The translations under genes and the position numbers were made by a program. Shown piece by piece: positions 26,741 to 52,859 of a stretch of DNA of 63,574 nucleotides. The DNA lies in sequence record SRR22947727_139; one strand, given 5' to 3'. The notes beneath the pieces are model-generated. The model was not told where the DNA came from and ran no database searches. It saw only the letters and a list, made by a program, of their open reading frames with translations. How positions within the stretch are numbered: the first letter of the stretch is position 1; each line of letters opens with the position of its first letter.

Positions 26741-27021
26741 GATTTATTTTTTGTAATTTTATCAATTTGTGGATGGCAAGCTTTAACGCTTTTAATCTCA
26801 TGGGTAATTGTAGATCTCTCTACTTCTAACCAAAGTCTACATCCATTAGTATGATGCCAAGTTTCTTTTTGAATACCTCTTATATTTTCGCGAAAGAAAA
26901 TAGCCTTTGTCCACTCTGATACAGATGCATCAAGCGAAGGATATTCTATGGAGGCGTCACCACCATAAGTGAACTCACTATGATCTCTCTCACCACAATA
27001 TGGACATTTAATTCTAATCAT
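26737..27021 (-). CDS. soxD: Sarcosine oxidase delta subunit; start 27021
   Basis: CPYCGER..EF.YGG, WHH..GC zinc motif. Confidence 0.92.
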   Translation of the reverse strand: MIRIKCPYCGERDHSEFTYGGDASIEYPSLDASVSEWTKAIFFRENIRGIQKETWHHTNGCRLWLEVERSTITHEIKSVKACHPQIDKITKNKS

Positions 27022-27022
27022 A

Positions 27023-30467: not shown

Positions 30468-31615
30468 TAAATTATCAAGTCTTCAATTTTTTTAGAGAAA
30501 TTTGTAATTTGCTCATAACCGTTTTCAGTAATTATAAAGCTGTCACCAACTTGGGCACGAAAATTTTCTTCATTAGCAGAACCATCAACAGCAAAAACCA
30601 TTCCAGGTTGTAAAATTGTTTTATTTCCTGAAACTAGCTGGGGTTCCTCAAGCATGCTAAAGCCAGTTGCTCTTCCACATCTAAATGTTGGGTAAGGATA
30701 GCCAGCACTTTGAATAGTTTCTGCGTAAGCTGCATGAACATCTTCAGCCTTAACACCAGGGCCCAAAACACTTAAGGCTGCTTTTTGTGATTGCACAGCA
30801 GTTTCATAAGTTTTAATTTGTGATTCATCGCGAATTTCTTTCAACCAAAATGTTCTATCAAAACCAAGTTTAAATTTATGAAAGTTTGTCATGCCACAAA
30901 AACACAAAAATACAGGCTCTCCATCTTTGATTAATTTTGTTGAGGATCGATGGTGAGTTTTGGGTAAATCTTTTCCAGAAGCCATAATTTGTAAAAAGTG
31001 AATTAAAGGAGAAATATTACTTTCCTTGAATTCATTTTCTAGAATTTCAGCAGCTTTCCTTGTACCTGCCTGAGAGGTTGCTAAAGCTACTTCATATTCA
31101 GGTACATTGTGTCCAATTGCATCTTTTCCAGCATGCATCATTGCTTCCGCAACTTTACCCGCTGACTTAGCAATTTTGAGCTCCTCTTCAGTTTTTATCA
31201 TTCTTATTAAATCTAAAATTGGTGAAATATTTTTAAATAATTTTTGCTCGTATAATGATGATATGTAATTTAGAACTAAAGTGCTGATTTTAAGTTTTTC
31301 AATTGCTACATTAGTATTTTTTTTTATATACTTTGGGAGCTCTTCTCTCCATTCATTATCAACACCATCATTCCATGTAATTATTTTATCGACAGGACAA
31401 TTTTCCTTAACTAAATGTGCATCAATGAGCGGGGTAATCAATAGAGTATCTGCATCTTTTGGAACTAATAAAAGGGTTGGTCTACCAAAAGACATATGTA
31501 AGAAATCATAATAGCCTGTAAAATAGTAGATAGAATCATCATCAGTAATGACAGCTAAATCAATATTATTTTTGGTAAGATCTTGTTTTAATTTTTCAAG
31601 ATTTTTTTTAAACAT
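30467..31615 (-). CDS. M24 (pita-bread fold) creatinase/ectoine-hydrolase-like protein
   Basis: Creatinase-type N-domain (IYYFTG), RMIKTEEE, DRTF, LQPGMVFAV, IITENGYEQIT. Confidence 0.85.
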   Translation of the reverse strand: MFKKNLEKLKQDLTKNNIDLAVITDDDSIYYFTGYYDFLHMSFGRPTLLLVPKDADTLLITPLIDAHLVKENCPVDKIITWNDGVDNEWREELPKYIKKNTNVAIEKLKISTLVLNYISSLYEQKLFKNISPILDLIRMIKTEEELKIAKSAGKVAEAMMHAGKDAIGHNVPEYEVALATSQAGTRKAAEILENEFKESNISPLIHFLQIMASGKDLPKTHHRSSTKLIKDGEPVFLCFCGMTNFHKFKLGFDRTFWLKEIRDESQIKTYETAVQSQKAALSVLGPGVKAEDVHAAYAETIQSAGYPYPTFRCGRATGFSMLEEPQLVSGNKTILQPGMVFAVDGSANEENFRAQVGDSFIITENGYEQITNFSKKIEDLII

Positions 31616-31638: not shown

Positions 31639-32796
31639 TTAAATTTTTAATTGTTGTTCTGCAAGCTCTACCCAATAAGAAGAACCTTTCACTAATAACT
31701 CATCATTAAAATCATAATCTGCTGAATGTAATGGCCTTCCATATGAGCCTGAAGTTCCATTGCCCATTAATAAAAAGCATCCAGGAGTATTTTCTGACAT
31801 AATTGAAAAATCTTCTGAAAAAGGTCTTGGATCAATATCACCATTACATTTATCTTCACCTAATAAAGTTACAGCAGCTTTTGTTGCTGCTTCTGCTTGT
31901 TTAGGTTGATTAAAAGTAACTGGACAAGTTGTTTCATACTTTACTTCAGCAGAAACTCCAAAAGATTCGCAAATACCTTCTACAAGTTGACGCATATTTT
32001 TTTCAATCATCAAGTTCGTATCTTGAGAAAATGCTCTAGCATCTCCTTTTATTAAACCATTACCGGGTAATACATTTTTTTTACCATCGGTAATAAATTC
32101 AGTCACAGAGACAACTCCAGCTTGTACAGGATCTAATTTTCGTGAAACAATTGTTTGTAATGCTAATATTATTTGACTGCCAATTGTAATTGTATCTTTT
32201 GACATATGTGGTAAAGCAGCGTGACCACCCTTACCTTTAATTAAAATTTCAAATAAATTTTCACTAGTGGTAATGCCACCTTTTCTTGTTCCAAATTCTC
32301 CTAACTCCATTCCAGGTATGTTATGCATTCCATAAACTTCATCTATGGAAAAATTAGTAAACAAACCTTCCTCAATCATTGTTTTGGCTCCAAGGGTATT
32401 CTCTTCATCTGGCTGAAAAATAAAATAAATAGTGCCATCAAAATTTCCTTGTTCTGCTAAATATTTTGCAGCACCTAATAACATCGTTGTATGCCCATCA
32501 TGACCACAAGCATGCATTCTATTTTCAATTGTAGATTTATAAGAAAAAGAATTTATTTCATTTATTGGTAAAGCATCCATGTCAGCTCTAATGCCAATAC
32601 TTTTATCACTAGTACCTTTTTTTAAAACGCCCACTACTCCTGTTTTAGCAATTCCTTGATGAACTTCTATGCCAAAATCTTTAAGCAAATTAACTACTTT
32701 ATTTGAAGCGTATTCTTCTTCAAAACTAATTTGGGGATGCATGTGCAAGTCATGTCTCCACTCAACCAACTGATTGTGCAGTCCTTGTGTTTTCAT
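31639..32796 (-). CDS. M20D amidohydrolase (hippurate hydrolase/aminoacylase type)
   Basis: RADMDALP, MHACGHDGH, FQPDEE, GMHN, GGHAA.PH, SEDF, LH...YDFND. Confidence 0.92.
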   Translation of the reverse strand: MKTQGLHNQLVEWRHDLHMHPQISFEEEYASNKVVNLLKDFGIEVHQGIAKTGVVGVLKKGTSDKSIGIRADMDALPINEINSFSYKSTIENRMHACGHDGHTTMLLGAAKYLAEQGNFDGTIYFIFQPDEENTLGAKTMIEEGLFTNFSIDEVYGMHNIPGMELGEFGTRKGGITTSENLFEILIKGKGGHAALPHMSKDTITIGSQIILALQTIVSRKLDPVQAGVVSVTEFITDGKKNVLPGNGLIKGDARAFSQDTNLMIEKNMRQLVEGICESFGVSAEVKYETTCPVTFNQPKQAEAATKAAVTLLGEDKCNGDIDPRPFSEDFSIMSENTPGCFLLMGNGTSGSYGRPLHSADYDFNDELLVKGSSYWVELAEQQLKI

Positions 32797-32800: not shown

Positions 32801-34243
32801 CTAAAGAGAATTAAACTCTTTAATTTTTTCATCAAGTGAAATCATATCTTTGTAATGCTTGTCCCAGAAAGATTGAGATCTTCTACTTTCAAACTCTTCT
32901 AAACTAGTTCCTTGTTGCTCAACCCATGTATAATAACCTAAGTTAAATATCCTCTCTTTATCAATTTGACTTAATTCCAAAGTATGATCTATTGTTATTG
33001 CTTCAAAATTTTTAGCAAAAATTTCTGCACAAGTGACCTGATCATAAATTTTACTAAATTGTTTTTTTGTTTTAGCTAGTTCTGTTTCATATAAATCAGC
33101 TCCATCAGTTGCCACTGTTATAATAGCATCATTTTTTGATAGCTTCATTTTTTTAGCAAGTTTTATTGAAGCAATAATATTGGCAATTGAAGAAAACCCA
33201 AACTCAGGCAATCTATCTACAAAATCTGAATCAAATCCTTTTCTTTTTGTTAAATAATTTTTACCTTCATCCGTATTGAATAATAAATTGAGATTATTTG
33301 TAGCTTCGTCCGATACACCAACTACATAATCTGAATTCATGACATTATGTATTAAAGGCACATGTTTGTCGCCAATACCTTGAATATTATGTTCACCATA
33401 ACCATTATAAAGAAGAGTTGGACATTCAGTAGCTTCAACAACTGCAATTTGCGCATTAAGATTTTCCTTTAAATAATCTCCCGCAGCTAATGTTCCGCTT
33501 GAACCAGATGCAGAAACATAAAACCGAGCTTGAAGATCGGATTCGCCTTTAACTTTTAAAAAAGATTTTTCAAAAGATGCGCCAGTAATTGCTCTATGAG
33601 TTGCATAATTATAATATTCATCAAATTGATTAATAATATCATTATTTTTATCTTTCTCTAATTCATTACAAGCATCATAAATTTCTTTAACATTACTTTC
33701 TGTGCCAGTAGTTTTAATAATATCATTTTTATCTTCAACCCATTTTTCAAGCCAATTAAATCTTTCCTTGCTCATCCCTTCAGGAAGAATTGCTACACTT
33801 TTGAAACCTAATATTTTAGAAATAGCAACGCCTCCTCTGCAGTAGTTTCCTGTAGAGGGCCAAACAGCTTTTTGTTTAGTATAATCGAATGAACCATTCA
33901 AAATTCTTGGCAATAAACAACCATATGCCGCCAAAACTTTATGAGCTGTTATAAGTGGAAAATATCTACCAAGATTGACAATTATTTTTGCGTCAACTCC
34001 AGTGAACTCACTTGGTAAAACAATATGTTCGGGAACATCTAAAAATTTACTATGATCTCTTTTATTAAACCAGTGTACTCTAAATAAATTTGCTGGGTCC
34101 ATTGCATCTTTATCTAGTTTTAAAACTTTATTTTTTATTTCCTCACTTATTGAATGTGGGTTTTTCAATTCAGATATTTTAGGAAGAACAACACCTTTTT
34201 CCTTAAAATATTTTGCAGTTTTTTCAACAATGTTACTTTGCAT
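32801..34243 (-). CDS. Fold-type II PLP-dependent enzyme, function unknown
   Basis: AHKV (PLP lysine), WPSTGNYCRGG, PEGMSKER, SGSSGT, IQGIG. Confidence 0.82.
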   Translation of the reverse strand: MQSNIVEKTAKYFKEKGVVLPKISELKNPHSISEEIKNKVLKLDKDAMDPANLFRVHWFNKRDHSKFLDVPEHIVLPSEFTGVDAKIIVNLGRYFPLITAHKVLAAYGCLLPRILNGSFDYTKQKAVWPSTGNYCRGGVAISKILGFKSVAILPEGMSKERFNWLEKWVEDKNDIIKTTGTESNVKEIYDACNELEKDKNNDIINQFDEYYNYATHRAITGASFEKSFLKVKGESDLQARFYVSASGSSGTLAAGDYLKENLNAQIAVVEATECPTLLYNGYGEHNIQGIGDKHVPLIHNVMNSDYVVGVSDEATNNLNLLFNTDEGKNYLTKRKGFDSDFVDRLPEFGFSSIANIIASIKLAKKMKLSKNDAIITVATDGADLYETELAKTKKQFSKIYDQVTCAEIFAKNFEAITIDHTLELSQIDKERIFNLGYYTWVEQQGTSLEEFESRRSQSFWDKHYKDMISLDEKIKEFNSL

Positions 34244-34245: not shown

Positions 34246-34905
34246 TTATATCTTTCTTTGTTTAAAACGTTTTTCTAACTTCATGGCAATAATGGCAGAG
34301 GGAATAGATACTATTAAGAAAAATACTCCAACTAAAGTCATTGGTTCTAGATATTTATAATGACTATTACTATACTGGTCTGCGGCTCTGAATAATTCAA
34401 CGACTGTGATAGCTGCAAGTAAAGGAGTCTCTTTAAACATAGTAATCAAGTAGTTAGCAAGAGGCGGAATCATAGGTGGAATAGCCTGTGGCAAAATTAC
34501 ATTTTTCCAAGTCTGATATTGATTGTAGTTCAATGATTTTGCAGCTTCCCATTGACCTTTGTGGACATTATCAATTCCTGCTCTAAAAACTTCTGCAGTG
34601 TATGTACTAAAATGAATACCAAGAACTAAAACTCCGCAGGTAAAAGCTTCAAAAAAAATACCAAAATCAGGCAAAACATAAAACACTACATACAGTTGAA
34701 CTAAAATTGGAGTTCTTCGAATAAATTCTGTAGTCCAATATAGAACAAACCTCAAAATTTTACTTTTGGACATTTTTAAAATAGCTATTCCAAGACCCAA
34801 AACGTAAGCAAGGATTGAAGCAACAAATGTTGCCTGAATAGTTACCACAACCCCTTTTGCTAGTTGTGGCAGTACATCAAAAGCAACTTCCCAACTCCAA
34901 TACAT
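34246..34905 (-). CDS. ehuD: Ectoine-type ABC permease EhuD; start 34905
   Basis: EFIRRTPILVQLY, AEVFRAGI, GQWEAA, NYLITMFKETPLL. Confidence 0.85.
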   Translation of the reverse strand: MYWSWEVAFDVLPQLAKGVVVTIQATFVASILAYVLGLGIAILKMSKSKILRFVLYWTTEFIRRTPILVQLYVVFYVLPDFGIFFEAFTCGVLVLGIHFSTYTAEVFRAGIDNVHKGQWEAAKSLNYNQYQTWKNVILPQAIPPMIPPLANYLITMFKETPLLAAITVVELFRAADQYSNSHYKYLEPMTLVGVFFLIVSIPSAIIAMKLEKRFKQRKI

Positions 34906-34906
34906 T

Positions 34907-35575
34907 TTAATTCTCTCCTGCAATCATAATATTTCTTCCCTTAGAAAATTTGTTAGCAATTATGTCGACAATCTTCACTAAAATTGAAGCGATGATAAAA
35001 TAAATAACTAATATCACGAGGAAAGGTTCTAAAGTTAAAGCGGTCTGTACTCTAATTATATGAGCCATAAATGTTAAGTCAGAAATTGTAATAAGAGATG
35101 CTACTGAAGTTAATTTTAAAAGTTCAATTAATAAATTTCCAAAAGTAGGAATCATGACAGGAATTGCTTGAGGAATAATTACGTACCTATATCTTTTGTA
35201 TGGAGGATAATTTAATGCCAATGAAGCCTCGTGTTGTTCTTTGCCTACAGCAAGAACTCCACCTCTCACTACTTCTGATCCATAAGCTCCAAGATTGCAA
35301 CCAATAGCAACAACACCAGCAGTTAAAGCATCAAAATAAATTCCCCACATTGGTAATACAAAATAAATAAAAAACATTTGAACGAGAGCGGAGCTACCCC
35401 GAAAAAATTCTAAATAAATTATAGCTATAATTCTAACTATTTTAAATTTTGATATTCTTGATAAGCCGACAACAAAAGAAATAACAAGAGCTAAGATCGC
35501 GCTTAAAACTGTTAAAATAATTGTCGTAATTGTACCATCGATCAGAATGGGATAAAATGCTAGAACTTCTTTCAT
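34907..35575 (-). CDS. ehuC: Ectoine-type ABC permease EhuC; start 35575
   Basis: EFFRGSSALVQMF, GAYGSEVVRG, FGNLLIELLK, DLTF. Confidence 0.85.
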   Translation of the reverse strand: MKEVLAFYPILIDGTITTIILTVLSAILALVISFVVGLSRISKFKIVRIIAIIYLEFFRGSSALVQMFFIYFVLPMWGIYFDALTAGVVAIGCNLGAYGSEVVRGGVLAVGKEQHEASLALNYPPYKRYRYVIIPQAIPVMIPTFGNLLIELLKLTSVASLITISDLTFMAHIIRVQTALTLEPFLVILVIYFIIASILVKIVDIIANKFSKGRNIMIAGEN

Positions 35576-35578
35576 AAT

Positions 35579-35611
35579 AAAAAAAAATTGCCCTGTAATA
35601 ATACAGGGCAA
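35579..35611 (-). terminator. Intercistronic hairpin with U-tract between ehuB and ehuC
   Basis: TTGCCCTGTA-ATAA-TACAGGGCAA at 35588-35611, followed on the minus strand by about 9 T. Confidence 0.8.
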
Positions 35612-35629
35612 AGTATTTTAAAGTTTAAT

Positions 35630-36472
35630 TTATTTTCCGTCTGGACATCTTGTCAGATATGATTCACCAGCAGTTGCTTCTGCTGAAAACCCATATGGCT
35701 CAATAATAGCTGCAAACTCGCCAGTAGCTTTAAGTTTTGCTAATGCCATATTGTATTCTGCTCTGAATTCAATATCATCCATATTGAAAGCAGCTCCAGC
35801 ACACCCAATTGGAACTCCAGAAATAGGCATAACTAATTCTAAATTAGAATCATTTGTTTTGTTTAACAAATCTTGAGTTCCTAAACCAGAAAGAGCAAAT
35901 ACATCAACTCTACCCTGTTGAAGCATTTTGATACCACTTGGAGGTGTATCGAAATAAACTATTTGATCTGCTTTAACGCCTCTTTCTAAAGCATATTTTT
36001 CTTCAGCACATCCAGCACAAGTAGTCATTTTTAAAGCAGGTTGTGCGGCGATATCTTCATAAGTAAGTAAGTTATTAGGATTTCCAGCAGGAACTGCAAA
36101 AGCTTCAGCCCCACATAAATCAGGCTCTGAATAAATAATAGACTCACATCTGTCAGGCTTGATATAAAGGCCTGAAGTTGCCATATCTACTCTTCGTGCC
36201 TGAAGTGCAGGTATCATAGCTCCATACATTATTACTTCAGCTTTTAAATCTGGAACACCAAGAATATTTAATACCGCTCTTGCAACATCTGGAGCAGCAC
36301 CAGTTACATATCCGTCAGTTTTAATATCACTGTATGGTGGTTCATTTGCAACAGCAACAGTTGCATAACCCTGCTTCTTTAATCTTTTTAATGTATCAGA
36401 CTCAGCAAAAGAAACGTTAGCTGAACCTAAAAGAATTAAAAAAGAAGCAAAAAATAAAATTATTTTTTTCAT
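35630..36472 (-). CDS. ehuB: Ectoine/hydroxyectoine ABC substrate-binding protein EhuB
   Basis: Signal peptide, ANEPPY, GAAPDVARA, YGAMIP.LQARR, GLYIKP.RC, GNP. Confidence 0.87.
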   Translation of the reverse strand: MKKIILFFASFLILLGSANVSFAESDTLKRLKKQGYATVAVANEPPYSDIKTDGYVTGAAPDVARAVLNILGVPDLKAEVIMYGAMIPALQARRVDMATSGLYIKPDRCESIIYSEPDLCGAEAFAVPAGNPNNLLTYEDIAAQPALKMTTCAGCAEEKYALERGVKADQIVYFDTPPSGIKMLQQGRVDVFALSGLGTQDLLNKTNDSNLELVMPISGVPIGCAGAAFNMDDIEFRAEYNMALAKLKATGEFAAIIEPYGFSAEATAGESYLTRCPDGK

Positions 36473-36520
36473 AATTTTTCTCCCTTAAGTTTTATAATTT
36501 GAAATTAACACTATCTTTGT

Positions 36521-36595: not shown

Positions 36596-36610
36596 ATATA
36601 GTACCAAATG
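36594..36610 (+). promoter_or_regulatory. Extended -10 (TGaTATAGT) 5 nt before the regulator ATG; probable leaderless mRNA
   Basis: TG at 36594-95, TATAGT at 36597-36602, ATG at 36608, no SD. Confidence 0.55.
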
Positions 36611-37072
36611 GACAAAATAGATTCATTTGATCTAAAAATTCTTAAGTTAATTCAAGAAAATAACAAAATAACATCAGAAATTTTAGCAAAAAAAGTTGGC
36701 TTATCTTCATCAGCTTGTCAAAGAAGAATAAATTCAATGCGCAAAGCCGGTATTATACAAAAAGACGTTTCTATTATTAACCGCAATGTTCTTGGTCGAA
36801 AAATTACTATTGTTGTTCAAGTTCTTAGCGACAAGGAAGGAGTTGAGTACAGTGAAGAATTTAAAAAAATAATGATTAAAGCACCTGAGGTTATGCAATG
36901 CTATTATGTTACTGGTGATTACGATTATGTATTAATTGCTACTTTTGTAGATATGGAAGAGTATGAATTATTTACCCAAAAGTATTTTTTAAATAATACA
37001 AATATAAAAAGATTTAGTTCTATGGTTGTAATGAATTGCGTTAAGGAAAACTTATCTATTCCTCTTAATTAA
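36608..37072 (+). CDS. Lrp/AsnC family transcriptional regulator (DoeX/AsnC-like position)
   Basis: D..D.KIL, LAKKVGLSSSACQRRI HTH, CYYVTGDYDY. Confidence 0.93.
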   Translation: MDKIDSFDLKILKLIQENNKITSEILAKKVGLSSSACQRRINSMRKAGIIQKDVSIINRNVLGRKITIVVQVLSDKEGVEYSEEFKKIMIKAPEVMQCYYVTGDYDYVLIATFVDMEEYELFTQKYFLNNTNIKRFSSMVVMNCVKENLSIPLN

Positions 37073-37841
37073 TATTACTAATAAACTTTTTTAGAAATGA
37101 TTTTGTACGCTCTTCCTTAGGATTAGAAAAAATATCACTAGGTTTTCCAGACTCAACAATTTGACCATTATCAAAAAACAAGACTCTATCTGCAAAATCT
37201 CTTGCAAAATTCATTTCGTGAGTGACTGTCAACATTGTTGTATCTGAGTTTGATGCCAATTTATGCAATACTTGCAAAACCTCATCTACTAGTTCAGGAT
37301 CTAATGCAGATGTTACTTCATCAAATAACATAATCTTTGGGTCCATTGCTAATGCCCTAGCTATAGCAACTCTTTGCTGTTGACCTCCTGATAATTGATG
37401 AGGATAATGATCTACTTTATCACTTAAACCAATCATGTTAAATAATTCCGAAGCTTTATCATGTGCTTCAGATTTATTTTTTTTCTTTATTAGAATTTGA
37501 GGTTCTTGAACATTCTCTATTGCAGTTAAATGTGGAAATAAATTAAACTGTTGAAATACCATTCCAATATGATCACGCATTTTTTGTAAATGTTTGTCTG
37601 AGGCATTAACAATTTTACCTGCATTTTTTTCATGCCATAAGTACTCATTGTTAACTAAAACAAAACCATCATCAATCGTTTCCAGGGTCATTAATATTCT
37701 CAAAATTGTTGTTTTTCCTGAACCACTAGGTCCTATTAATGCAAGTTTTTCACCATCTTTAACTTCTAAACTTAACTGATCTAAAACTTTTAAGTCTCCA
37801 AACGACTTAGAAACTTTTTCAAACTCAATAATATTATTCAT
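37065..37841 (-). CDS. ehuA: Ectoine-type ABC ATPase EhuA
   Basis: GPSGSGKTTILRILMTLE, LSGGQQQR, FDEVTSALDPEL. Confidence 0.88.
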   Translation of the reverse strand: MNNIIEFEKVSKSFGDLKVLDQLSLEVKDGEKLALIGPSGSGKTTILRILMTLETIDDGFVLVNNEYLWHEKNAGKIVNASDKHLQKMRDHIGMVFQQFNLFPHLTAIENVQEPQILIKKKNKSEAHDKASELFNMIGLSDKVDHYPHQLSGGQQQRVAIARALAMDPKIMLFDEVTSALDPELVDEVLQVLHKLASNSDTTMLTVTHEMNFARDFADRVLFFDNGQIVESGKPSDIFSNPKEERTKSFLKKFISNIN

Positions 37842-37861
37842 CGATTTTAATTTCTAGTTGA

Positions 37862-40168
37862 TTAATATTTTTGTTCAAGCTTTTTTTGCATTTTAGGTTT
37901 TAAAAATATCTTAACCTTTTTTATCTCATTTTGCTTAGCCTTTCTTATTTCAACAAGGCACGTATGAGAAGTTGGAGCTTGTGAAAGTTGAGATGTACCT
38001 ATGTCTTTCGTTAATACATTGGGATTTCCATGTAAATCAGTATTAATTTCATAATCAGGATCAAACCATGCACCTGTAGATAAAACCAAAACACCTTTCA
38101 TAATCTCATCAGATAATCTTGCCCCTGCAAGAACTCTTCCACGTTTATTAAATATTAAAACAATATCATTATTCTCAATATTTCTCTCTTTTGCATCCTC
38201 AATATTTATTAACACAGGTTCTCTGTCTTTAATTTTATTTTTGAGACTATATTCGGCATTATCTAGCTGACCATGCAGTCTATATTCTGGTTGATTTGAT
38301 AAAAGATGAAGTGGAAATTTTTCTTTTCTACCAAGCCATTCATATGGCTCTATCCAGGTAGGATGCCCTTTACAATCTTTCAAATTATATTTTTTGATTG
38401 TACTTGAAGTAATTTCAATTTTACCTGAGGGTGTATTCAAAGGGTTTATCTTTGGGTTATCTCTAAAATCTTTAAACATAATTTTTTTGTTTTTTTCAAT
38501 TGGTACTTCAAAAAAACCATCCTCCCAAAATTTATCAAACTCTGGTAGTTTTAAATTCATTTCTTCTGAAACTTTTTTACTTTCATTCCACAAATATTTT
38601 AACCAATCTAATTCTGATTTATTTTCTGTAAAAGAATTTTCAAAACCTAACTTATTAGCAAGAAAGGAAAATATTTCAAAATCAGATTTGGATTCACCAA
38701 TTGATGAAATAGTTTTTTTGTTAGCAATAATAGTTGGGTCTCTTGGATTGAGCATAATATCATTTCTCTCCAAAGCTGTATTTGCTGGAAGAATAATATC
38801 TGCATGTCTTGCTTGCGCATTCCACCAAATTTCATTTACAATTATAGTTTTTGGTATTTGCCAAGCTTTAACTAATCTATTTAAATCTTGATGGTGATGA
38901 AAGGGATTACCTCCTGCCCAATATATTAATTTTATATTTGGATATTTTAGTTTTTTTCCATCATATTGAAAAATTTCATTAGGTTTTTCTAACATATCAG
39001 TAATTCTTGCTACAGGTATAAAGTCTTTAATTTTATTTTTACCTTGAGGTAGACTTTTCCAAGGTATTTTTTTAAAAACATCACCAGTGCTATTAACACT
39101 TGAATAACCAAAACCTATCCCACCTCCTTCTGTCCCAATATGACCTAGCATTGAAGCTAAAGTGATTCCCATCCACAATGGTTGCTCTCCAGCAGAAGCT
39201 CTTTGTAGACTCCACGAAATTGAAATCATTGTTTTATTTTTGGAAATCTCTTCTCCTAACCATTTTATTGTTTCTACTGGTATGGATGTAATATTTGAAG
39301 CCCATTCAGGGGTGCATGGCTGATTATTATTTTTTCCTAAAACATATGATTTAAATTCATTAAAACCATTAGTATATCTATCAATAAATTTTTTATCATA
39401 TTTATCAGAAACAATTAAAATATAGGCTAAGCTTAACATTAAAGCTGTATCGGTATTTGGAATAATGGAGACTTGCTTAGCATTTAGAAATTTAGCTGAA
39501 TCATTAGCATTAGGACTAATGTTTATAAATTTAGTACCTGACTCAATGCATTTTCTTAATGCTATTTCTGTAGTATGCTTTCCAACACCACCAGCGGAAA
39601 CTTGCGAGTTTTTTAGAGGCATTCCACCAAACATTACTATCAAATCACATTCTTTTTCTAAAGTATTCCAGGTGTTATGCTCATCTAAAAAAGAGTAAAG
39701 GTCATGACCAACAATGTGAGGTAATAAAGTTTGTGCTGCAGCATAAGAATAACTTTGTAAAGATGATGAAAACCCACCAAATAAATTAAAAAAACGATTT
39801 AATTGACTTTTTGCATGATGAAATCTTCCAGCACTAGCCCAACCATAAGACCCGGCGTAAATGGAGTTATTGCCAAAATTGTTTTTTATATTTTCTAATT
39901 CAAATGCCGTTATATCAATTGCTTCTTTCCAAGAAACTGCAACGAATTCATCAAGACCTCTTAAGTTTTTTCTATTATCTCTATTTTTTAACCAGTCTTT
40001 TCTAATATAAGGCTGATTAATTCTAAGATCATCTGTTGCTGACTTAAGGAAACCTAATCCAAAATCTGATGGATTTGGATCTTTTGACCATTTGTTGATT
40101 TTTATATTTTTTCCATTTTTTTTTGAGGTTTCATAAGTCCCCCAGTGAGTACTAACAAAGTTCTTCAT
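37862..40168 (-). CDS. Molybdo-bis-MGD S/N-oxide reductase, BisC/DorA-type (DMSO reductase family III), no Tat leader
   Basis: THWG, GSYGWASAGRFHHAKSQ, YSYAAAQ (Ser ligand), WAGGNPFHHHQD, TPSGKIEI, RLHGQLD, HGNPNVLT.D. Confidence 0.9.
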   Translation of the reverse strand: MKNFVSTHWGTYETSKKNGKNIKINKWSKDPNPSDFGLGFLKSATDDLRINQPYIRKDWLKNRDNRKNLRGLDEFVAVSWKEAIDITAFELENIKNNFGNNSIYAGSYGWASAGRFHHAKSQLNRFFNLFGGFSSSLQSYSYAAAQTLLPHIVGHDLYSFLDEHNTWNTLEKECDLIVMFGGMPLKNSQVSAGGVGKHTTEIALRKCIESGTKFINISPNANDSAKFLNAKQVSIIPNTDTALMLSLAYILIVSDKYDKKFIDRYTNGFNEFKSYVLGKNNNQPCTPEWASNITSIPVETIKWLGEEISKNKTMISISWSLQRASAGEQPLWMGITLASMLGHIGTEGGGIGFGYSSVNSTGDVFKKIPWKSLPQGKNKIKDFIPVARITDMLEKPNEIFQYDGKKLKYPNIKLIYWAGGNPFHHHQDLNRLVKAWQIPKTIIVNEIWWNAQARHADIILPANTALERNDIMLNPRDPTIIANKKTISSIGESKSDFEIFSFLANKLGFENSFTENKSELDWLKYLWNESKKVSEEMNLKLPEFDKFWEDGFFEVPIEKNKKIMFKDFRDNPKINPLNTPSGKIEITSSTIKKYNLKDCKGHPTWIEPYEWLGRKEKFPLHLLSNQPEYRLHGQLDNAEYSLKNKIKDREPVLINIEDAKERNIENNDIVLIFNKRGRVLAGARLSDEIMKGVLVLSTGAWFDPDYEINTDLHGNPNVLTKDIGTSQLSQAPTSHTCLVEIRKAKQNEIKKVKIFLKPKMQKKLEQKY

Positions 40169-40177
40169 CTAATAAAT

Positions 40178-41161
40178 TTAGTTAACAATTATTCCCAATT
40201 TTTTTTTATCTGCAATTGCATAAGCATATCGAGCAATTGCTGTATCCTGGACTCCTGTACCCGTTAAATCAGCTACCGTGATATCATCATTATTTTTTCT
40301 ACCTAATTTTGGATTCATAATAATTTTTCCTAAATCATTAAAGATCATATCACTTTTGATTAAATTATTTTTAATAGCATGATTTAACTCACCTAAAATA
40401 CTTGTTTGAGCTTGGCTGTCTGGGACATAAGCATCACAATTTTTAATTATATTAGGTTCTAACTCATTTTTTTCTTCTGCATCTGAGCCCATGGCAGTTA
40501 TGTGTATACCTTTAGGTAAAGAAGAATAATCAACAAGAGGTTTTTTACTTGGGGTAGTTGTAATTAAAATATCAGCATTTTTAACAACTTCGCTTGTGTT
40601 ATCGAATGCTGTAAAATTAAGGTTAATTTTTTTAGTGACATTTTCAATGTAAGCATGAGTTTTTTTTATATCTCGAGACCATACATTTACATTTTTAATA
40701 TCTCTAACTAGAGTAAGCGCCTCAAGTTGCATTCGTGCCTGTATTCCAGTCCCAATTATTGCAACTGTAGAGGAATCTGGATTAGATAAATATTTAGAAG
40801 CTATGGCTCCTGCTATTGCAGTTCTTACATCAGTTAAATATCCCTTGTCTAATAAAACAGATTTTATTACACCTGTTTGTGAGTCTAAAAGAATCATCAA
40901 ACCATTACTAGAAGGTAGTCCTAGCTTTGGATTATTAAAAAAACCTGATGCTACTTTCACTGCAAAACTATCTAACCCCTCTATATACGCAGCTTTAACA
41001 TCTGACTCACCGTGATATTTCTCAATATCAAGTCGTAAAATGGGAGGCATTACTGTCTTGCCTAGTGATAAATTTTTAAAAGCATCTTCAATTATAGGAA
41101 TTAGTTCTGCATTAAATTGTACACACTCCTTAATCTCCGCTGAATTAAGAATTAAGGTCAT
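40178..41161 (-). CDS. eutC: EutC, ornithine cyclodeaminase/mu-crystallin family
   Basis: DVKAAYIEG, SGFFNNP..GLPS, GYLTDVRTA, MGSDAEEKNE, DLTGTGVQDTAIA. Confidence 0.88.
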   Translation of the reverse strand: MTLILNSAEIKECVQFNAELIPIIEDAFKNLSLGKTVMPPILRLDIEKYHGESDVKAAYIEGLDSFAVKVASGFFNNPKLGLPSSNGLMILLDSQTGVIKSVLLDKGYLTDVRTAIAGAIASKYLSNPDSSTVAIIGTGIQARMQLEALTLVRDIKNVNVWSRDIKKTHAYIENVTKKINLNFTAFDNTSEVVKNADILITTTPSKKPLVDYSSLPKGIHITAMGSDAEEKNELEPNIIKNCDAYVPDSQAQTSILGELNHAIKNNLIKSDMIFNDLGKIIMNPKLGRKNNDDITVADLTGTGVQDTAIARYAYAIADKKKLGIIVN

Positions 41162-42108
41162 GCTATTATTTTATTAAATAAATTTGCGTCTATATTTCCA
41201 CCGCAAATTAAACTTATTATATTTTTTCCTAATTTTTTTGACATATTGTCTTTCACTACCATAACCCCAGTAGCTGCAGCTCCCTCTGTTACCAATTTGT
41301 GCTCAACAAAATTTAATTTAATACCCTCAGCAATCTTAGCTTCATTAACAAGCACAAAATCATCAATTTTTTCTTGTGCTATTTTAAAAGTATATTGATT
41401 ATCCAAACCAATACTTCCACCCAAACAATCAGCTAAAGTTTCTAATTCCTCAACATCTGTTGGCTTACCATTTTTTAAACTCTCAAACATAGAAGGCCCT
41501 CTTTCCATAGAAACAGCAATTATGTTCACAGATGGTTTTTGTAATTTAATAGCCAAAGCAATACCTCCAATTAATCCACCCCCTGAAGTTGGGATGATAA
41601 CAGTATCTACCTCAGGAAAATCCTCTAACATTTCTAAACCCAGAGTCCCTTGACCTGCAATTACTTCCTCATCATCAAATGGATGGACTAAAGTAATATT
41701 TTGTTCTTTAGCAATTTTTTTTGCATACAAGTCAGCTTCATCACTATTATTGCCAATAATTTCAACTTTAGCACCCAAAGCTTCAATTGCTTCCTTGCGA
41801 TATTGAGGAACCATTGATGACATATAAATTGTTGATTGAATGCCAAGAACACTAGCAGCATAAGCAACTCCTTTACCATGATTACCAGTAGATACAGCTA
41901 TTACACCTTTTTGCTTTTGTTCATTATCCAATGATAATAATTTATTTGTCGCTCCTCTTAATTTAAAGGAGCTGGTAATTTGAAGTGACTCTAACTTCAA
42001 CTTAACAATTCTATCTTTAGATAAATAATTTGATAATATTAGTGGAGTCCTATTGATATAGGGAAAAATAGCTTCATGTGCTTTTTTAATTTTCTCTAAA
42101 TTAATCAA
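41158..42108 (-). CDS. eutB: EutB, threonine dehydratase-like PLP enzyme
   Basis: LKLESLQ..SFKLRGA, STGNHG, HPFDD, GGGL, LAD.LGG.IG; lies between eutA and eutC. Confidence 0.85.
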   Translation of the reverse strand: MINLEKIKKAHEAIFPYINRTPLILSNYLSKDRIVKLKLESLQITSSFKLRGATNKLLSLDNEQKQKGVIAVSTGNHGKGVAYAASVLGIQSTIYMSSMVPQYRKEAIEALGAKVEIIGNNSDEADLYAKKIAKEQNITLVHPFDDEEVIAGQGTLGLEMLEDFPEVDTVIIPTSGGGLIGGIALAIKLQKPSVNIIAVSMERGPSMFESLKNGKPTDVEELETLADCLGGSIGLDNQYTFKIAQEKIDDFVLVNEAKIAEGIKLNFVEHKLVTEGAAATGVMVVKDNMSKKLGKNIISLICGGNIDANLFNKIIA

Positions 42109-42146
42109 AATAATTTACTTTTATTTGTTTTAAAAAATTTCATATT

Positions 42147-42899
42147 TCAGCTGGCTAATAATTTACCATAGCCCTCTATTTTTGAGTCAATATCAACTGA
42201 CCTTAAACAATCCCATATAATAGCCTGATTACTAGATATTACTATTGTATTTAGTTTCTTTTCAATTTTATCTAATACATCTACAATCTTAAGTGCCGTA
42301 CAAGAAACAAACAATCCATCAACTTTACTAAGATCTATTTTTGTAATTTCTTTCTCTAAACTATCTAAGCTTACTTGGGCAATTTCAGAGTCATACTCTA
42401 AATTAAATGAACTAAAAGACTCAACATGAATATTATTGTCATTCAAATAATTATAAACCGTTACATTTACATTTTTTGGATAAGGAGTAAGAACAGCAAT
42501 ATTTTTTAAGCCTAGATGTTTAAACGCTTTCAAAGCTGCTGTTATGGGTGTTGTGACTTTAGCATTTGGCTTTGTTTTATTAACCTCTTCTTTTATTTTT
42601 TTTGAACCAATAGCAATTGTTCCAGAAGTACATCCATATGCAATGATATCTATATGTTGAGATGGTAAAATCTGCTCAGACACATCACTAATATGATTGG
42701 CCATTTTTAAATAATTTTCATGATTTAAAGGATTTTCAAATGGAATACGGTTAACAAAAATATCAACCGGAATTTGATGACAAATACTTCTATAATCTTG
42801 TTCTATAGTAAAATCTGTTGATAGCGCAATTACACCAATTTTAGGATTAACTGTTTTAACAATTTCTGCTTTTAAATCGTTTTGAACAAAAGTGCTCAT
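42147..42899 (-). CDS. eutA: EutA, Asp/Glu racemase-maleate isomerase family; start 42899
   Basis: GVIALSTD.TIE.D, YGCTSG, LTPY, SCTAL, SSNQA; ATGA overlap with the upstream gene. Confidence 0.85.
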   Translation of the reverse strand: MSTFVQNDLKAEIVKTVNPKIGVIALSTDFTIEQDYRSICHQIPVDIFVNRIPFENPLNHENYLKMANHISDVSEQILPSQHIDIIAYGCTSGTIAIGSKKIKEEVNKTKPNAKVTTPITAALKAFKHLGLKNIAVLTPYPKNVNVTVYNYLNDNNIHVESFSSFNLEYDSEIAQVSLDSLEKEITKIDLSKVDGLFVSCTALKIVDVLDKIEKKLNTIVISSNQAIIWDCLRSVDIDSKIEGYGKLLAS

Positions 42900-44002
42900 A
42901 CTTGATTTGGAAAATAATCTTCGCATTCTCCATCTCTGTAAACATCTGTTGTAGCACAATGAAGACTTCCTCCAAATGCATACACGTCTCTAAAAGGAAC
43001 TGGAACTACCGTCATACCAAACCCTTCCATTTGTTTAATCATCTTTTCTTCGGATGCCTCAACACAAATAGTTGTTGGGTTTAAAATTAAAACATTCATT
43101 GATAACCAAATGGATGAATAACACATTGGAGGTGGCGTATTATGAACAGATGGTGCTGCATCAATAATTTCCCACTTATTATTATCAAAGATCTTTCTTT
43201 GCTCATTAGAAATCTTTCTATTTGGATTTATAATAATCACCCCTGGTTTAATTGGTGTAAAACAAGCATCTATATGCGTAGGAATTAACTCGCCTGGTAA
43301 ATTCACTTGATGAACACGGTGATTTGGAAAATGTCTTTTTAACCAATTTAATCCTTTTAAATTAGAGGTAAAATTATTGTGATAAAATAAATCTTTTCCA
43401 AAACGCAATATTTCAGCCGCATCAAATAACGGCTCTTGTTCTGTTAAAATCATATCTTTATCTTCAATTTTTTTATACCTTTCTTCCTCAGTTATTCCTT
43501 CAGGTAAATAATTTGATTTATAAGTAGCCTTAGTTAATCGCGGTTTTGGCGCTGACTCCCAACGCATATTAGGATCTTCATCATAGTACTTTTCAAGTAA
43601 AGGTCTGTAGGCAAGATATTCAAACCATCTACAACGATAAGACATAGGAGCTTCTAACATCTCATTACCAACCGTTAAGATAACATCTCTTGGGGGCATA
43701 GATCCAAATTGCCCATCATTTATCCAGTCAGGTGTTTGAATTGCTTTTGTAAAATCTATCGGAGTTGGGCGGTCTACCTTTATATTATGTGACTCAAGAA
43801 TTTTAACAAAATTGTTGAGCTGTATATTTGCTTTTTCTATAGCTTCACTTGAGCGCGGGCCATGAGATCCAGCCATGCCACTATCTTTACTAATTTTAGG
43901 TTCCAAAGCAGGTTCCATTGGGGGAATATTTGAGTGCTCAACTGTGCCAACAATTACATGCTTTAAGGGATCCCATTCATTCCACGAGTTAACTATTGTC
44001 AT
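42896..44002 (-). CDS. Amidinotransferase (AGAT/StrB1/CyrA family)
   Basis: VNSWNEWDPL, PPRD, FDAA, HID, WLSMN, GGSLHC (Asp-His-Cys triad intact). Confidence 0.9.
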   Translation of the reverse strand: MTIVNSWNEWDPLKHVIVGTVEHSNIPPMEPALEPKISKDSGMAGSHGPRSSEAIEKANIQLNNFVKILESHNIKVDRPTPIDFTKAIQTPDWINDGQFGSMPPRDVILTVGNEMLEAPMSYRCRWFEYLAYRPLLEKYYDEDPNMRWESAPKPRLTKATYKSNYLPEGITEEERYKKIEDKDMILTEQEPLFDAAEILRFGKDLFYHNNFTSNLKGLNWLKRHFPNHRVHQVNLPGELIPTHIDACFTPIKPGVIIINPNRKISNEQRKIFDNNKWEIIDAAPSVHNTPPPMCYSSIWLSMNVLILNPTTICVEASEEKMIKQMEGFGMTVVPVPFRDVYAFGGSLHCATTDVYRDGECEDYFPNQV

Positions 44003-44069
44003 ATTTATCTCTATAAATTAAAAGTTACTAAAGTAATTTAATAAAATACATAAATAAGAGGAAGTAAAT

Positions 44070-45521
44070 ATGAAACTAAAAAATAATGCACTTTTTAAGG
44101 AAACTTGTTTTATAGGTGGAAAGTGGATTGAAAGTGACTCCGGTGAAAAAATCAAGGTAGATAATCCCGCTAATGGTGAAATTATTGGAGAAGTTCCTAA
44201 ATGTTCAACTTCTGAAACACAAAAAGCAATTCAAGAAGCTCAAGCCGCATTTCCTTCTTGGAGAGATAAAACTGCAAAAGAAAGATCGATCATTTTACAA
44301 AAATGGGCAAGGCTCATTGAAGCAAATGCTGATGACTTAGCAAAAATAATGACAATCGAACAAGGAAAACCTTTAGCTGAAGCAAAAGGTGAAATATTAA
44401 TGGGTGTTACGTATATTGATTTTTATGCTGAAGAAGGAAAAAGAGTATACGGGGATATTATCCCCGATCCTATGCCAGATAGAAGGATAGTTATTATAAA
44501 ACAACCTGTAGGAGTTGTTGGAGCTATAACACCCTGGAACTTTCCAAGTACAATGATCACAAGAAAATGTGCTCCCGCACTAGCTGTTGGATGCACAGTT
44601 GTAATTAAACCAGCAAGTCAAACGCCTTATTCTGCTCTAGCTCTTGGAGTATTGGCAAAAGAAGCAGGTTTTCCTGATGGTGTAATGAATATTATTACAG
44701 GAGCAGCAAGTGCTATAGGTAAAGAATTAACAGAAAATCCTTTAGTTAGAAAAATATCATTTACTGGCTCAACAGAGGTTGGAAAAGTTCTTCTACAACA
44801 AAGTGCCACTACTGTTAAAAAAGTTTCTATGGAACTTGGTGGGCATGCACCTTTTGTAGTTTTTGATGATGCAGATTTAGATGAAGCCATAACTGGAGCC
44901 ATGCAAAGTAAGTTTAGAAATTCAGGACAAACATGCATTTGTGCGAATAGAATTTTTGTGCATGAAAAAGTTTATGATGAATTTTTGAATAAATTTATAG
45001 ATGAAGTAAATAAAATCAAAGTTGGAAATGGTTTAGAAGAAGGAATTGTTTCTGGTCCTCTAATTGATCAACCTTCTTTAATGAAAGTTCATGACCAAGT
45101 AAAAGATGCTGTCAACCAAGGTGCAAAAATTGCTGTTGGTGGTGACGTTCATTCACTTGGAGGCAATTTCTATCAACCAACTGTGCTATCTAACGTTACA
45201 TCTAAAGCAAAAATTACTTACGAAGAAACATTTGGGCCAGTAGCTCCTTTGTATAAATTTAGCTCTGATGAGGAAGTTATTAAAATGGCAAATGATACTC
45301 CATACGGTCTTGCTTCTTATTTTTATTCTAGAGATATTGGTAGAATTTGGAGAGTAGCTGAGGCTCTAGAATATGGGATGGTAGGTGTAAATACAGGCCT
45401 AACTACAAAAGCTGAAATACCTTTTGGTGGAGTAAAAGAATCTGGACTTGGAAGAGAAGGTTCTAAGTATGGATTAGATGATTATCTAAATATTAAATAT
45501 ATTTCAATGGCAGGCATCTAA
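44070..45521 (+). CDS. gabD: Succinate-semialdehyde dehydrogenase (GabD/DoeC-like)
   Basis: PWNFP, ELGGHAP, KFRNSGQTCIC, EETFGP, GLGREGS. Confidence 0.9.
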   Translation: MKLKNNALFKETCFIGGKWIESDSGEKIKVDNPANGEIIGEVPKCSTSETQKAIQEAQAAFPSWRDKTAKERSIILQKWARLIEANADDLAKIMTIEQGKPLAEAKGEILMGVTYIDFYAEEGKRVYGDIIPDPMPDRRIVIIKQPVGVVGAITPWNFPSTMITRKCAPALAVGCTVVIKPASQTPYSALALGVLAKEAGFPDGVMNIITGAASAIGKELTENPLVRKISFTGSTEVGKVLLQQSATTVKKVSMELGGHAPFVVFDDADLDEAITGAMQSKFRNSGQTCICANRIFVHEKVYDEFLNKFIDEVNKIKVGNGLEEGIVSGPLIDQPSLMKVHDQVKDAVNQGAKIAVGGDVHSLGGNFYQPTVLSNVTSKAKITYEETFGPVAPLYKFSSDEEVIKMANDTPYGLASYFYSRDIGRIWRVAEALEYGMVGVNTGLTTKAEIPFGGVKESGLGREGSKYGLDDYLNIKYISMAGI

Positions 45522-46408
45522 GAGAGCCAAGCGGCTCCTCGCACACCACTAGAATCACCGTGAACATTTTTCACAACTCTGGTATTTAAAGTATTACTAA
45601 AAATATATTTTTTTAGAGAATTGTTTATGTGATCATAAATATAAGAAATATTAGACATGCCTCCACCTAAAACAATAATGTCTGGATCTAAAATATTACA
45701 AACTAAAGACAGCCCCCTAGCGAGGTGGTCAATATAATTGTCTAAGGCGTCAATTGCTCTTTTTTCATTATTATTGAATTCTTCTAAAATTGCATGGGAA
45801 TCATAATTAGTATTATGTTTTAAATTAAAACAACTTGCAAATCCTGGACCTGAAACATATGTCTCCATACAACCATTTTTTTCACAATAACATTGTTTCA
45901 CATATTTTTTTTCATCATCAGATCTATTTGGCAAACTAACATGCCCCCACTCACCTGCTATATTATTTTTTCCAGCAAAAACTGTTTGATTTACAGAGAT
46001 TCCACCACCAGTTCCAGTTCCAATTATTACTCCAAAAACAACCGTGTGCCCTTTTCCAGCTCCATCAACTGCTTCAGATAAGGCAAAACAATTTGCATCA
46101 TTTGCTAAATTTACTCTTCTATTAAGTTTTTTTTCTAAATCTTTTTTAAAAGGCTTTCCATTCAGCCAAATTGAATTTGCGTTCTTTACTAACGCTGTTT
46201 CCGAAGAGACAGCTCCTGGCATCCCTATTCCTACAGAATCAGAGTCTCCAAAATCTCTTTCAAACTCTTTAACTATTGAAATAATGCCACTTATAGTACC
46301 ATCATAATTTTTTTCTGTTTTAATTCTATTTCTTGCTAATTCTTTACCTAAATTATCAATCAAAATCCCTTCGGTTTTCGTTCCACCGACGTCGATCCCA
46401 ATTTTCAT
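45518..46408 (-). CDS. ROK family sugar kinase (Mak/fructokinase-like)
   Basis: DVGGTK, NDANCFALSE, GEWGH, CYC..GC.E, HGDSSGVRGAAWL. Confidence 0.9.
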   Translation of the reverse strand: MKIGIDVGGTKTEGILIDNLGKELARNRIKTEKNYDGTISGIISIVKEFERDFGDSDSVGIGMPGAVSSETALVKNANSIWLNGKPFKKDLEKKLNRRVNLANDANCFALSEAVDGAGKGHTVVFGVIIGTGTGGGISVNQTVFAGKNNIAGEWGHVSLPNRSDDEKKYVKQCYCEKNGCMETYVSGPGFASCFNLKHNTNYDSHAILEEFNNNEKRAIDALDNYIDHLARGLSLVCNILDPDIIVLGGGMSNISYIYDHINNSLKKYIFSNTLNTRVVKNVHGDSSGVRGAAWLS

Positions 46409-46414
46409 TTTAGA

Positions 46415-49317: not shown

Positions 49318-49404
49318 TGGTGCGGCTGAGAAGACTTGAACTTCCACAGGATAAATCCCACAGCGACCTCAACGCTGCGCGTATACCAATTCCGCCACAG
49401 CCGC
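49318..49404 (-). tRNA. tRNA-Leu (anticodon GAG), 87 nt, CCA encoded
   Basis: Minus strand GCGGCTG...CAGCCGC-ACCA acceptor stem, anticodon arm CAGCG-TTGAGGT-CGCTG, long variable arm, GTTCAAGTC T-loop. Confidence 0.96.
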
Positions 49405-51376: not shown

Positions 51377-51378
51377 AA

Positions 51379-51813: not shown

Positions 51814-51819
51814 AAAAAT

Positions 51820-52842: not shown

Positions 52843-52859
52843 TAAGTACTCCTTTTTAT

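Follow-up and report, generated by a model that had tools for sequence, protein, structure and literature searches.

An amidinotransferase gene heads a catabolic array

We analysed a stretch of 63,574 nucleotides from sequence record SRR22947727_139 (the window, by which we mean this whole stretch), in which a minus-strand gene at 42896..44002 encodes a 368-residue amidinotransferase of the arginine:glycine amidinotransferase (AGAT) type. The gene has an ATG start, and its product matches solved amidinotransferases. Upstream lies the divergent gene for a succinate-semialdehyde-dehydrogenase-type aldehyde dehydrogenase (SSADH), which starts at 44070 and leaves an intergenic region of 67 nt (44003-44069) in front of the amidinotransferase ATG. 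The amidinotransferase is therefore the promoter-proximal gene of a same-strand array, in agreement with the original prediction, which had called it the first gene of an operon. Behind it the array holds, in this order, eutABC-like genes, bisC, ehuABCD, a gene for a pyridoxal-phosphate (PLP) enzyme, M20 and M24 hydrolase genes, a hydroxyproline-dehydratase-like gene, soxBDAG and a eutD-like gene. The placing of an amidinotransferase gene first in an ectoine-type catabolic operon is a new version of a known kind of arrangement.

The protein is an AGAT-type transamidinase

The 368-residue protein matched human AGAT (1JDX) with an E-value of 8.4e-72 over query residues 4-364. Matches to SxtG (6U1R, 1e-66), HsvA (5WPI, 2e-58) and StrB1 (1BWD, 4e-54) were weaker. 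When aligned to human AGAT (1JDW numbering), Asp194, His243 and Cys349 fall on D254, H303 and C407, the Cys/His/Asp catalytic triad named in excerpts of PMC3684758. The triad, predicted earlier to be intact, is invariant in an alignment of 23 sequences (A1). Four further residues are kept with respect to the human enzyme: D106 (D170) and D245 (D305), both invariant in the same alignment, and R262 (R322) and S297 (S355), each present in at least 90% of the sequences. The human residues D170, D305, R322 and S355 were reportedly assigned roles in binding the guanidino and amino-acid groups by Humm et al. in 1997.

No Pfam family was assigned to the amidinotransferase at an E-value of 0.001, PF02274 included, and the only Pfam signal was PAD_porph at E 0.0019 (threshold 0.01). 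A precomputed PF02274 match exists for some of the homologues that are 62-65% identical. The family assignment of the window protein accordingly rests on the sequences of solved structures. Five close homologues (P0019, P0022, P0030, P0091 and P0092) are named 'serine/threonine protein kinase' in NCBI records, which, judged by alignment to AGAT structures, is a misannotation.

Compared with vertebrate AGAT/GATM (EC 2.1.4.1; 1JDW/1JDX), the window enzyme shares full-length homology, the triad and the equivalents of D170, D305, R322 and S355. It differs in having no mitochondrial presequence, in a lid that reads E-L-I-P-T rather than D-P-N-P-M, and in its genetic setting, since its gene heads a bacterial catabolic operon whereas AGAT serves creatine synthesis. 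SxtG, HsvA and StrB1, with which AmtA of phaseolotoxin synthesis is grouped, belong to the same fold family, but they act in secondary-metabolite or virulence pathways on non-glycine acceptors and are more distant from the window enzyme than AGAT is. We are confident that the protein is a working AGAT-type transamidinase of the guanidino-group-modifying superfamily, and it adds a new member to this known family of enzymes. By homology its chemistry is predicted to be amidino transfer. The gene is single-copy in the three genomes G001-G003, which together with G107, G109 and G115 served as the genomes of relatives in this analysis.

The lid residues do not point to a new acceptor

The original prediction had noted the motif IPTHID in place of the NPMHID of human AGAT and had read it as a sign of an altered acceptor pocket. 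The motif is there: I240-P241-T242-H-I-D stands opposite N300-P301-M302-H-I-D, and the full lid runs E238-L-I-P-T242 before H-I-D where human AGAT has D-P-N-P-M-H-I-D. Asn300 and Met302 of the human 300-flap are thus absent, with I240 and T242 in their places. In excerpts of PMC4887976 the flap sequences are D-P-N-P-M (human), D-M-H-P-M (AmtA) and D-I-F-P-S (CyrA). Because CyrA (F, S) and AmtA (H, M) deviate as well, the Asn300/Met302 flap does not define the family. As far as lids can be compared by published description, that of CyrA/AoaA, an Arg:Gly enzyme of cylindrospermopsin synthesis, resembles the one found here in combining a hydrophobic with a small hydroxyl residue (F245/S247 in CyrA, I240/T242 in the window protein). 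The narrow specificity of CyrA is tied to F245 and S247 in excerpts of PMC3684758, and changes at either residue are described as broadening it in those of PMC4887976. The lid therefore has the pattern of a strict Arg:Gly enzyme and is not evidence of a new acceptor, so this part of the prediction was not supported.

Among 84 homologues the lid is I-P-T in 28, Y-P-I in 46 and F-P-T in 7, with three Anaerolineaceae copies having other types. I-P-T is restricted to the window's subclade, where it occurs in 28 of 28 members of the group at 85-97% identity. Since relatives whose amidinotransferase is linked to a EutA-like gene carry YPI (L081 and L041) or FPT (L082), the type of lid does not depend on the linkage. 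The Anaerolineaceae locus L038 (10001-13597) holds three tandem, highly divergent amidinotransferase homologues, at 42-45% identity to the window enzyme and with lids HPW and NPW, flanked by ABC (ATP-binding cassette) ATPase genes.

A lid of this kind, together with the retention of all catalytic and substrate-binding residues of AGAT, is what an ordinary biosynthetic Arg:Gly amidinotransferase would show, one whose guanidinoacetate would go into a creatine-type solute or be exported and whose place in the operon is mere packaging. An EamA-type transporter gene adjoins the block in Pelagibacter relatives, and excerpts of PMC9321204 describe creatine turnover in marine communities, both of which would suit such an enzyme. 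We nevertheless consider it unlikely, as the gene stands first in a catabolic array and relatives adjoin arcC/arcB or creatinase, an enzyme that splits creatine. In general, streamlined genomes would seldom keep a biosynthetic gene at the head of a degradative operon, which we also counted against it. Nor was a biosynthetic partner found: as predicted, the window proteins that were scanned gave no match to a polyketide synthase (PKS), non-ribosomal peptide synthetase (NRPS) or methyltransferase family, the open reading frames (ORFs) at 50996-63406 lying outside the scan. CyrA differs in this respect, being encoded in a PKS/NRPS toxin cluster.

The junction with the EutA-like gene reflects operon packing

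The next gene (42147..42899, minus strand) encodes a 250-residue protein of the Asp/Glu-racemase/arylmalonate-decarboxylase fold (PF17645, 2.4e-23). TIGR02990 (EutA) is its best family at 200.7 bits, below the cut-off of 318, and the EutA-like proteins of relatives score 169-222 bits. Two cysteines, C90 and C200, are shared by all 13 sequences of an alignment (A2). By sequence, 'eutA' here is an ectoine-utilisation EutA-like gene and not the eutA of ethanolamine utilisation.

The plus strand reads TCAT at 42896-42899, that is ATGA on the coding strand, where the TGA that ends the amidinotransferase (42898-42896) and the first codon of the EutA-like gene, ATG (42899-42897), overlap. A stop/start overlap at the end of the amidinotransferase is kept in 30 of 30 related loci, as TAATG in 23, ATGA in 6 and TTGA in 1. 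Within the window, however, 13 of 50 neighbouring gene pairs on the same strand overlap in this way (5 by 4 nt and 8 by 1 nt), the eutB/eutC pair among them. As overlaps are this common, the ATGA shows operon packing, typical of this streamlined genome, and no special partnership; the overlap noted in the original prediction is itself confirmed. In L005, from the metagenome-assembled genome CM1_5m.P70, the EutA-like frame behind the junction (3470-4237) is broken by several frameshifts, which could be those of a pseudogene or long-read assembly errors.

Contigs from RNA libraries spanned the amidinotransferase/eutA junction at 97-99% identity in three of four runs (three studies). This fits co-transcription, although the contigs lack single-transcript resolution and DNA carry-over is possible. 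Stretches without such contigs are uninformative. A promoter and terminator scan of 36400-46500 found no terminator between the two genes. Terminator-like sites in this region numbered 3, against 4.4 +/- 2.0 in shuffled sequences, and promoter-like sites 62, against 48.7 +/- 7.7, with those in 44003-44069 at chance level. The only Rfam match in the window was a tRNA at 49321-49404. We discounted a riboswitch or leader upstream of the amidinotransferase because the 67-nt region is too short and matched no Rfam family.

The linkage is stable within one family

Relatives were searched in contigs representing one genome per species, and the best 80 of 591 were taken, comprising 29 close loci (85-97% amidinotransferase identity) and 51 more distant ones (45-66%). 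The EutA-like gene directly follows the amidinotransferase in 26 of the 29 close loci, the exceptions being L005 with its frameshifts and L026 and L029, where the amidinotransferase match is incomplete. Only one of the 51 more distant loci (L041) has the pair.

A second sample comprised 116 genomes of the taxonomic family to which the nearest genome belongs. The amidinotransferase is present in 92 and a EutA-like gene in 95. In 88 of the 92 the EutA-like gene follows on the same strand, within 9 nt in 86 cases and after a gap of 142-143 nt in the remaining 2, where the EutA match is partial. The four exceptions are G053, which stops at a contig end, G026 and G029, with incomplete matches, and G107, a genuine split with M24-AGAT|SSADH-ROK in L083 and EutA-EutB-EutC-PLP in L084, which are separate contigs. 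On deep branches, G115 and G116 retain the complete array though their amidinotransferases are just 63-65% identical to that of the window.

An even sample of the class (401 genomes) contained the amidinotransferase in 11, a EutA-like gene in 76 and both in 8. The genes adjoin only in the two genomes of the window's family and stand apart in 6 of 6 other alphaproteobacterial genomes that have both. At the genome level, EutA-like genes occur in 8 of 11 amidinotransferase-bearing genomes and in 68 of 390 others (Fisher p 1.2e-4, or 0.0018 without the window's family), values that ignore kinship and marine habitat. The linkage is thus old and stable inside one family, but it is separable and no property of the enzyme family.

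Such a linkage could reflect a functional pair, in which the amidinotransferase would act on an amidine or diaminobutyrate-type intermediate of an ectoine/hydroxyectoine-type pathway while its racemase-fold partner adjusts the stereochemistry of substrate or product. The direct linkage in most family genomes, the overlap in every locus compared and the genome-level co-occurrence all argue for a pair, as does L041, which keeps AGAT-EutA while eutB/C are not adjacent. We judge the idea decidedly improbable, given the split in G107, the single distant locus with the pair and the separation of the genes in the other alphaproteobacteria. The array also already has a DoeA-like ring hydrolase and a DoeB2-like deacetylase, the Arg/Orn-binding residues are unchanged, the lid does not track the linkage and overlaps are frequent in this genome. 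For the same reason, the presence of the DoeA-like hydrolase and DoeB2-like deacetylase, opening of the ectoine ring by the Cys enzyme was rated low. The packing of the amidinotransferase with the eutA/B/C-like genes is best read as the inherited operon layout of one family and not as an obligate two-enzyme unit.

The family also has a second EutA-like paralogue, 30-33% identical and scoring 169-188 bits with TIGR02990, at L086 5365-6147 (+), L087 4078-4836 (-) and L088 4757-5539 (+). In G107 and G109 this paralogue lies between M24 'type a' and soxB, the slot that holds a proline-racemase-family gene in the window, so that two unrelated racemase folds share one position.

The window's subclade diverged and is now constrained

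In a maximum-likelihood tree of 45 sequences (midpoint root), the stem branch of the window's subclade measures 0.84 changes per site, where other inner branches of this family are mostly 0.01-0.2; the rows of the three Anaerolineaceae sequences are long. A wide protein search gave the same picture, with full-length matches dropping from 78% to 66% identity and none in between. Fixed differences set the subclade apart from the other 53 sequences at 27 positions, including P239L in the flap, T247C, N258I, L264I and P265S. They are not enriched at the active site: 11 of the 27 lie within 10 residues of D106, D194, H243/D245, R262, S297 or C349, where about 34% would be expected by length. In comparisons with close relatives, the ratio of nonsynonymous to synonymous substitution rates (dN/dS) of the amidinotransferase was 0.03-0.05 in 6 of 6 cases, denoting strong purifying selection; for the EutA-like gene it was 0.09-0.17. 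In the more distant pairs dS is above 1. A burst of change followed by constraint could mean that the function was re-tuned or that the gene was replaced by that of an unsampled relative, both of which would produce this pattern.

Some relatives stand beside genes of probable guanidino-compound breakdown

A true creatinase (E 7e-160 to 7YTO, 2e-154 to 1CHM) is encoded directly upstream of the amidinotransferase in L030, L033, L034, L035, L037 and L078, and two other creatinase-fold types adjoin it in L039, L041, L046 and L083. Counted within 700 nt, a creatinase-fold gene neighbours the amidinotransferase in L083 and in 9 of the 51 loci at 45-66% identity. The three types are mutually distant (21-25% identity). 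A GcvT-like gene stands behind the amidinotransferase in L041 and L083. Pelagibacter homologues lie in EamA-creatinase-AGAT-threonine-aldolase-like blocks (L033, L034, L035, L037, L078, L092), which resemble the window in a 61-63% identical amidinotransferase, a small-genome marine host and a creatinase-fold neighbour. They differ in that theirs is a true creatinase (E 7e-160), in having no eut genes and in the YPI lid. These contexts, with the arc-like locus described next and the arginase-family genes given below, point indirectly to guanidino-compound breakdown with arginine and ornithine as the carrier pair.

A different setting was found in a member of the Desulfobacterales (L061, 10001-14903), where the amidinotransferase is followed by genes for a carbamate kinase, a 449-residue protein without a family match and a catabolic ornithine carbamoyltransferase (OTC). 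The kinase and OTC both score over their cut-offs, giving an arc-like operon with the amidinotransferase in the arcA position. A homologue at the place of arcA, beside arcC and a catabolic OTC, could suggest that the enzyme is mainly a hydrolase, either through attack of water on the amidino-enzyme or through deiminase-like chemistry, and a lid variant of AmtA freed ornithine from arginine without transfer according to excerpts of PMC4887976. We regard this as very improbable, because the protein retains the whole AGAT residue set and is 59-66% identical to a widely conserved family, the relatives of which with solved structures are transferases, and because the arc-type context is a single locus.

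Another candidate reaction is Arg + sarcosine <-> Orn + creatine. Run for salvage, such a sarcosine/creatine transamidinase would convert creatine to sarcosine for SoxBDAG and keep the amidino nitrogen as arginine. In excerpts of PMC9321204, North Pacific communities formed 13C3,15N1-creatine from labelled glycine betaine, from which its authors infer that either a reversible creatinase or some unidentified enzyme that turns sarcosine into creatine is at work. That labelling would suit the reaction, as would soxBDAG near the end of the array, the creatinase or GcvT-like demethylase genes next to relatives, and marine lids (YPI, FPT and IPT) that are unlike the N-P-M of human AGAT. All of this is circumstantial, though, and the lid resembles that of glycine-specific CyrA. 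No AGAT-family enzyme that takes a secondary amine turned up in a literature search that was not thorough, and we know of none that accepts one such as sarcosine. On balance we hold the sarcosine/creatine reaction to be quite improbable. We give as little credence to the wider proposal that marine AGAT-type enzymes are the sarcosine-creatine link in the sea and that the window's subclade, with its long stem and IPT lid, has been re-tuned and works with the EutA-like racemase.

The array resembles an ectoine utilisation system with additions

Downstream of the EutA-like gene the minus strand encodes an EutB-like PLP dehydratase (41158..42108; PALP; NF005680 382.7 bits, cut-off 413) and, overlapping it by 4 nt, an EutC-like cyclodeaminase of the OCD/mu-crystallin family (40178..41161; NF006141 456.2 bits, cut-off 408; TIGR02992 423.8 bits, cut-off 471.65). 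A BisC-family molybdopterin S/N-oxide reductase follows (37862..40168, minus; TIGR00509 905 bits, cut-off 1017.55). It is a variable insert, found at this array position in only four of the 29 close loci (L002, L004, L007 and L008). An ectoine/hydroxyectoine-type ABC transporter comes next on the same strand, with all four equivalogs above cut-off: the ATPase EhuA (37065..37841; TIGR03005 401 bits, cut-off 345.4) and, in a block at 34246..36472, EhuB (35630-36472; TIGR02995 288.3 bits, cut-off 190.9), EhuC (34907-35611; TIGR03004 232.7 bits, cut-off 196.95) and EhuD (34246-34923; TIGR03003 275.8 bits, cut-off 205.2). A 154-residue ORF on the plus strand inside the ehu insert (36608..37072), from its sequence likely an AsnC/Lrp-type regulator, is conserved in L002. 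bisC, ehuA, this ORF and ehuBCD are inserted together between the EutC-like and the PLP enzyme genes.

The PLP enzyme (32801..34243, minus) is a divergent 480-residue protein of fold type II with a cysteine-synthase fold (PALP 37.6 bits), matching cysteine synthases at E 4e-15 and weaker and no NCBIfam family at E 1e-30. It stays with eutABC even without the amidinotransferase, in L084. Then come, all on the minus strand, a DoeB2-like M20 amidohydrolase (31639..32796; TIGR01891 317 bits, over cut-off; NF038260 DoeB2 311.3 bits, cut-off 550), an M24 creatinase-fold hydrolase that we call 'type a' (30467..31615; Creatinase_N and Peptidase_M24), and a proline-racemase-family protein resembling trans-3-hydroxy-L-proline dehydratase (29445..30467; NF047722 424.8 bits, cut-off 550). 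M24 'type a' matches creatinase 1CHM at E 3e-22 and DoeA at E 2e-11 and is an orthologue of neither. An Ldh_2-family dehydrogenase is encoded on the opposite, plus strand (28437..29438; NF040650 174.9 and NF007504 146 bits, both below cut-off).

The sox block (23224..28288, minus) contains soxB (27023-28288; TIGR01373 593.5 bits, over cut-off), soxD (26737-27084; PF04267), soxA (23783-26740; TIGR01372 1159.6 bits, cut-off 1164) and a 196-residue ORF labelled soxG by position alone. A DoeA/EutD-like ectoine hydrolase (21974..23146, minus; TIGR02993 472.4 bits, cut-off 613) follows the soxG-position ORF and closes the same-strand array, some 20 kb away from eutABC.

The array shares with the known ectoine/hydroxyectoine utilisation system (Ehu/Eut) the EhuABCD transporter over cut-offs, EutA/B/C/D-like genes, a small opposite-strand ORF at the asnC position and an ssd-type aldehyde dehydrogenase. 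Unlike that system, it starts with an amidinotransferase; its EutA, EutB and EutD score below the equivalog cut-offs; the DoeB2-like M20 enzyme takes the place of EutE, no EutE-type gene being present among the scanned window proteins; and the PLP enzyme, a second M24, the proline-racemase-family gene, bisC and soxBDAG are additions. The window has no diaminobutyrate transaminase (atf/DoeD), for which TIGR00709 matches were below cut-off in five of five family genomes searched.

On the other side of the amidinotransferase, the divergent SSADH (44070..45521, plus; TIGR01780 714.2 bits, cut-off 646.35) also adjoins the amidinotransferase in L041, L081, L082 and L083. It is followed by a syntenic ROK-family sugar kinase gene (45518..46408, minus; PF00480), which is next to SSADH in relatives too. 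Elsewhere in the window, 11848-19562 encodes a flavin-dependent oxidoreductase of the DAO family, a Pot-type ABC transporter (binding protein, two permeases and ATPase), an EamA transporter and an M19 dipeptidase, and may be a further amine and peptide uptake block. Judged solely by gene order and size, the ORFs at 50996-63406 would be a ribosomal-protein operon.

Salvage of amidino groups is the favoured role

AGAT reactions are written as reversible in the abstract of PMC9103764 (Arg + Gly <-> guanidinoacetate + Orn). The reading we favour, tentatively and at somewhat less than an even chance, is that this organism uses the reaction for salvage, moving the amidino group of a guanidino acid onto ornithine to form arginine. 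The host, a small-genome marine alphaproteobacterium, would import the guanidino acid, most likely guanidinoacetate, with creatine and 4-guanidinobutyrate as alternatives. Cys349 would attack the guanidino carbon of the donor, with His243 and Asp194 as the acid-base pair; the amine part of the donor would leave, and the enzyme-bound amidino group would be passed to the amine of the acceptor. With L-ornithine as acceptor the product would be L-arginine, formed without ATP and without nitrogen loss as urea. The co-product glycine (or sarcosine, or 4-aminobutyrate) could feed the SoxBDAG and SSADH enzymes of the same array. The window protein retains the residues with which human AGAT binds arginine or ornithine by the amino-acid end.

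We prefer salvage because the gene heads a catabolic array, the window offers no biosynthetic partner, and relatives have creatinase-fold and arcC/arcB neighbours. The catabolic or salvage role proposed in the original prediction thus gains support from gene context, and from context only. Several points weigh against it. Beyond 'AGAT-type transamidinase', all that is said of the enzyme is read from its neighbours. The CyrA-like lid suits ordinary Arg:Gly synthesis of guanidinoacetate equally well as salvage. Five family genomes searched contain no creatinase orthologue (best match 30% identity), so the creatine link rests on fold and not on orthology, and 42 of the 51 more distant loci are without a creatinase-fold neighbour. 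No neighbour pattern emerged in the larger alphaproteobacterial genomes at L089, L090, L091 and L094, of which L089 and L094 were scanned and where ORF calls are unreliable at high GC content. Arginine from salvage still gives urea if it is cleaved by an arginase-family enzyme; arginase-family genes are present in five of five family genomes searched, and urease alpha in one of these five, all of which are incomplete. Finally, salvage leaves the tight, conserved junction with the EutA-like gene without a biochemical reason.

Meaning for small-genome ocean bacteria

In the literature searched, supplements excluded, no paper ties an amidinotransferase to the osmolyte catabolism of these bacteria. 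Excerpts of a 2026 survey of ectoine catabolic clusters (PMC13188858) make no mention of such an amidinotransferase gene, and a search pairing the enzyme with Pelagibacter returned no paper naming it. A paper that mentions both an amidinotransferase and SAR11 just lists GATM under taurine metabolism in the excerpt concerned.

The gene is nearly core (92 of 116 genomes) in a family of ocean bacteria that is abundant and has small genomes. Purifying selection on the gene is strong, and RNA libraries from seawater contain it. Were it to encode a plain Arg:Gly enzyme, it would still show that no acceptor code can be read from the lid residues. If it were a sarcosine/creatine transamidinase, it would explain the direct sarcosine-to-creatine label in glycine-betaine tracer experiments; in reverse, bacteria mostly without urease would keep the amidino nitrogen as arginine while SoxBDAG turns sarcosine into needed glycine. 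If the favoured salvage role is correct, oligotrophic bacteria would have a urea-free route to nitrogen and glycine from guanidinoacetate- and creatine-type compounds, and the enzyme would be a concrete candidate for the unexplained sarcosine-creatine exchange of marine tracer work.

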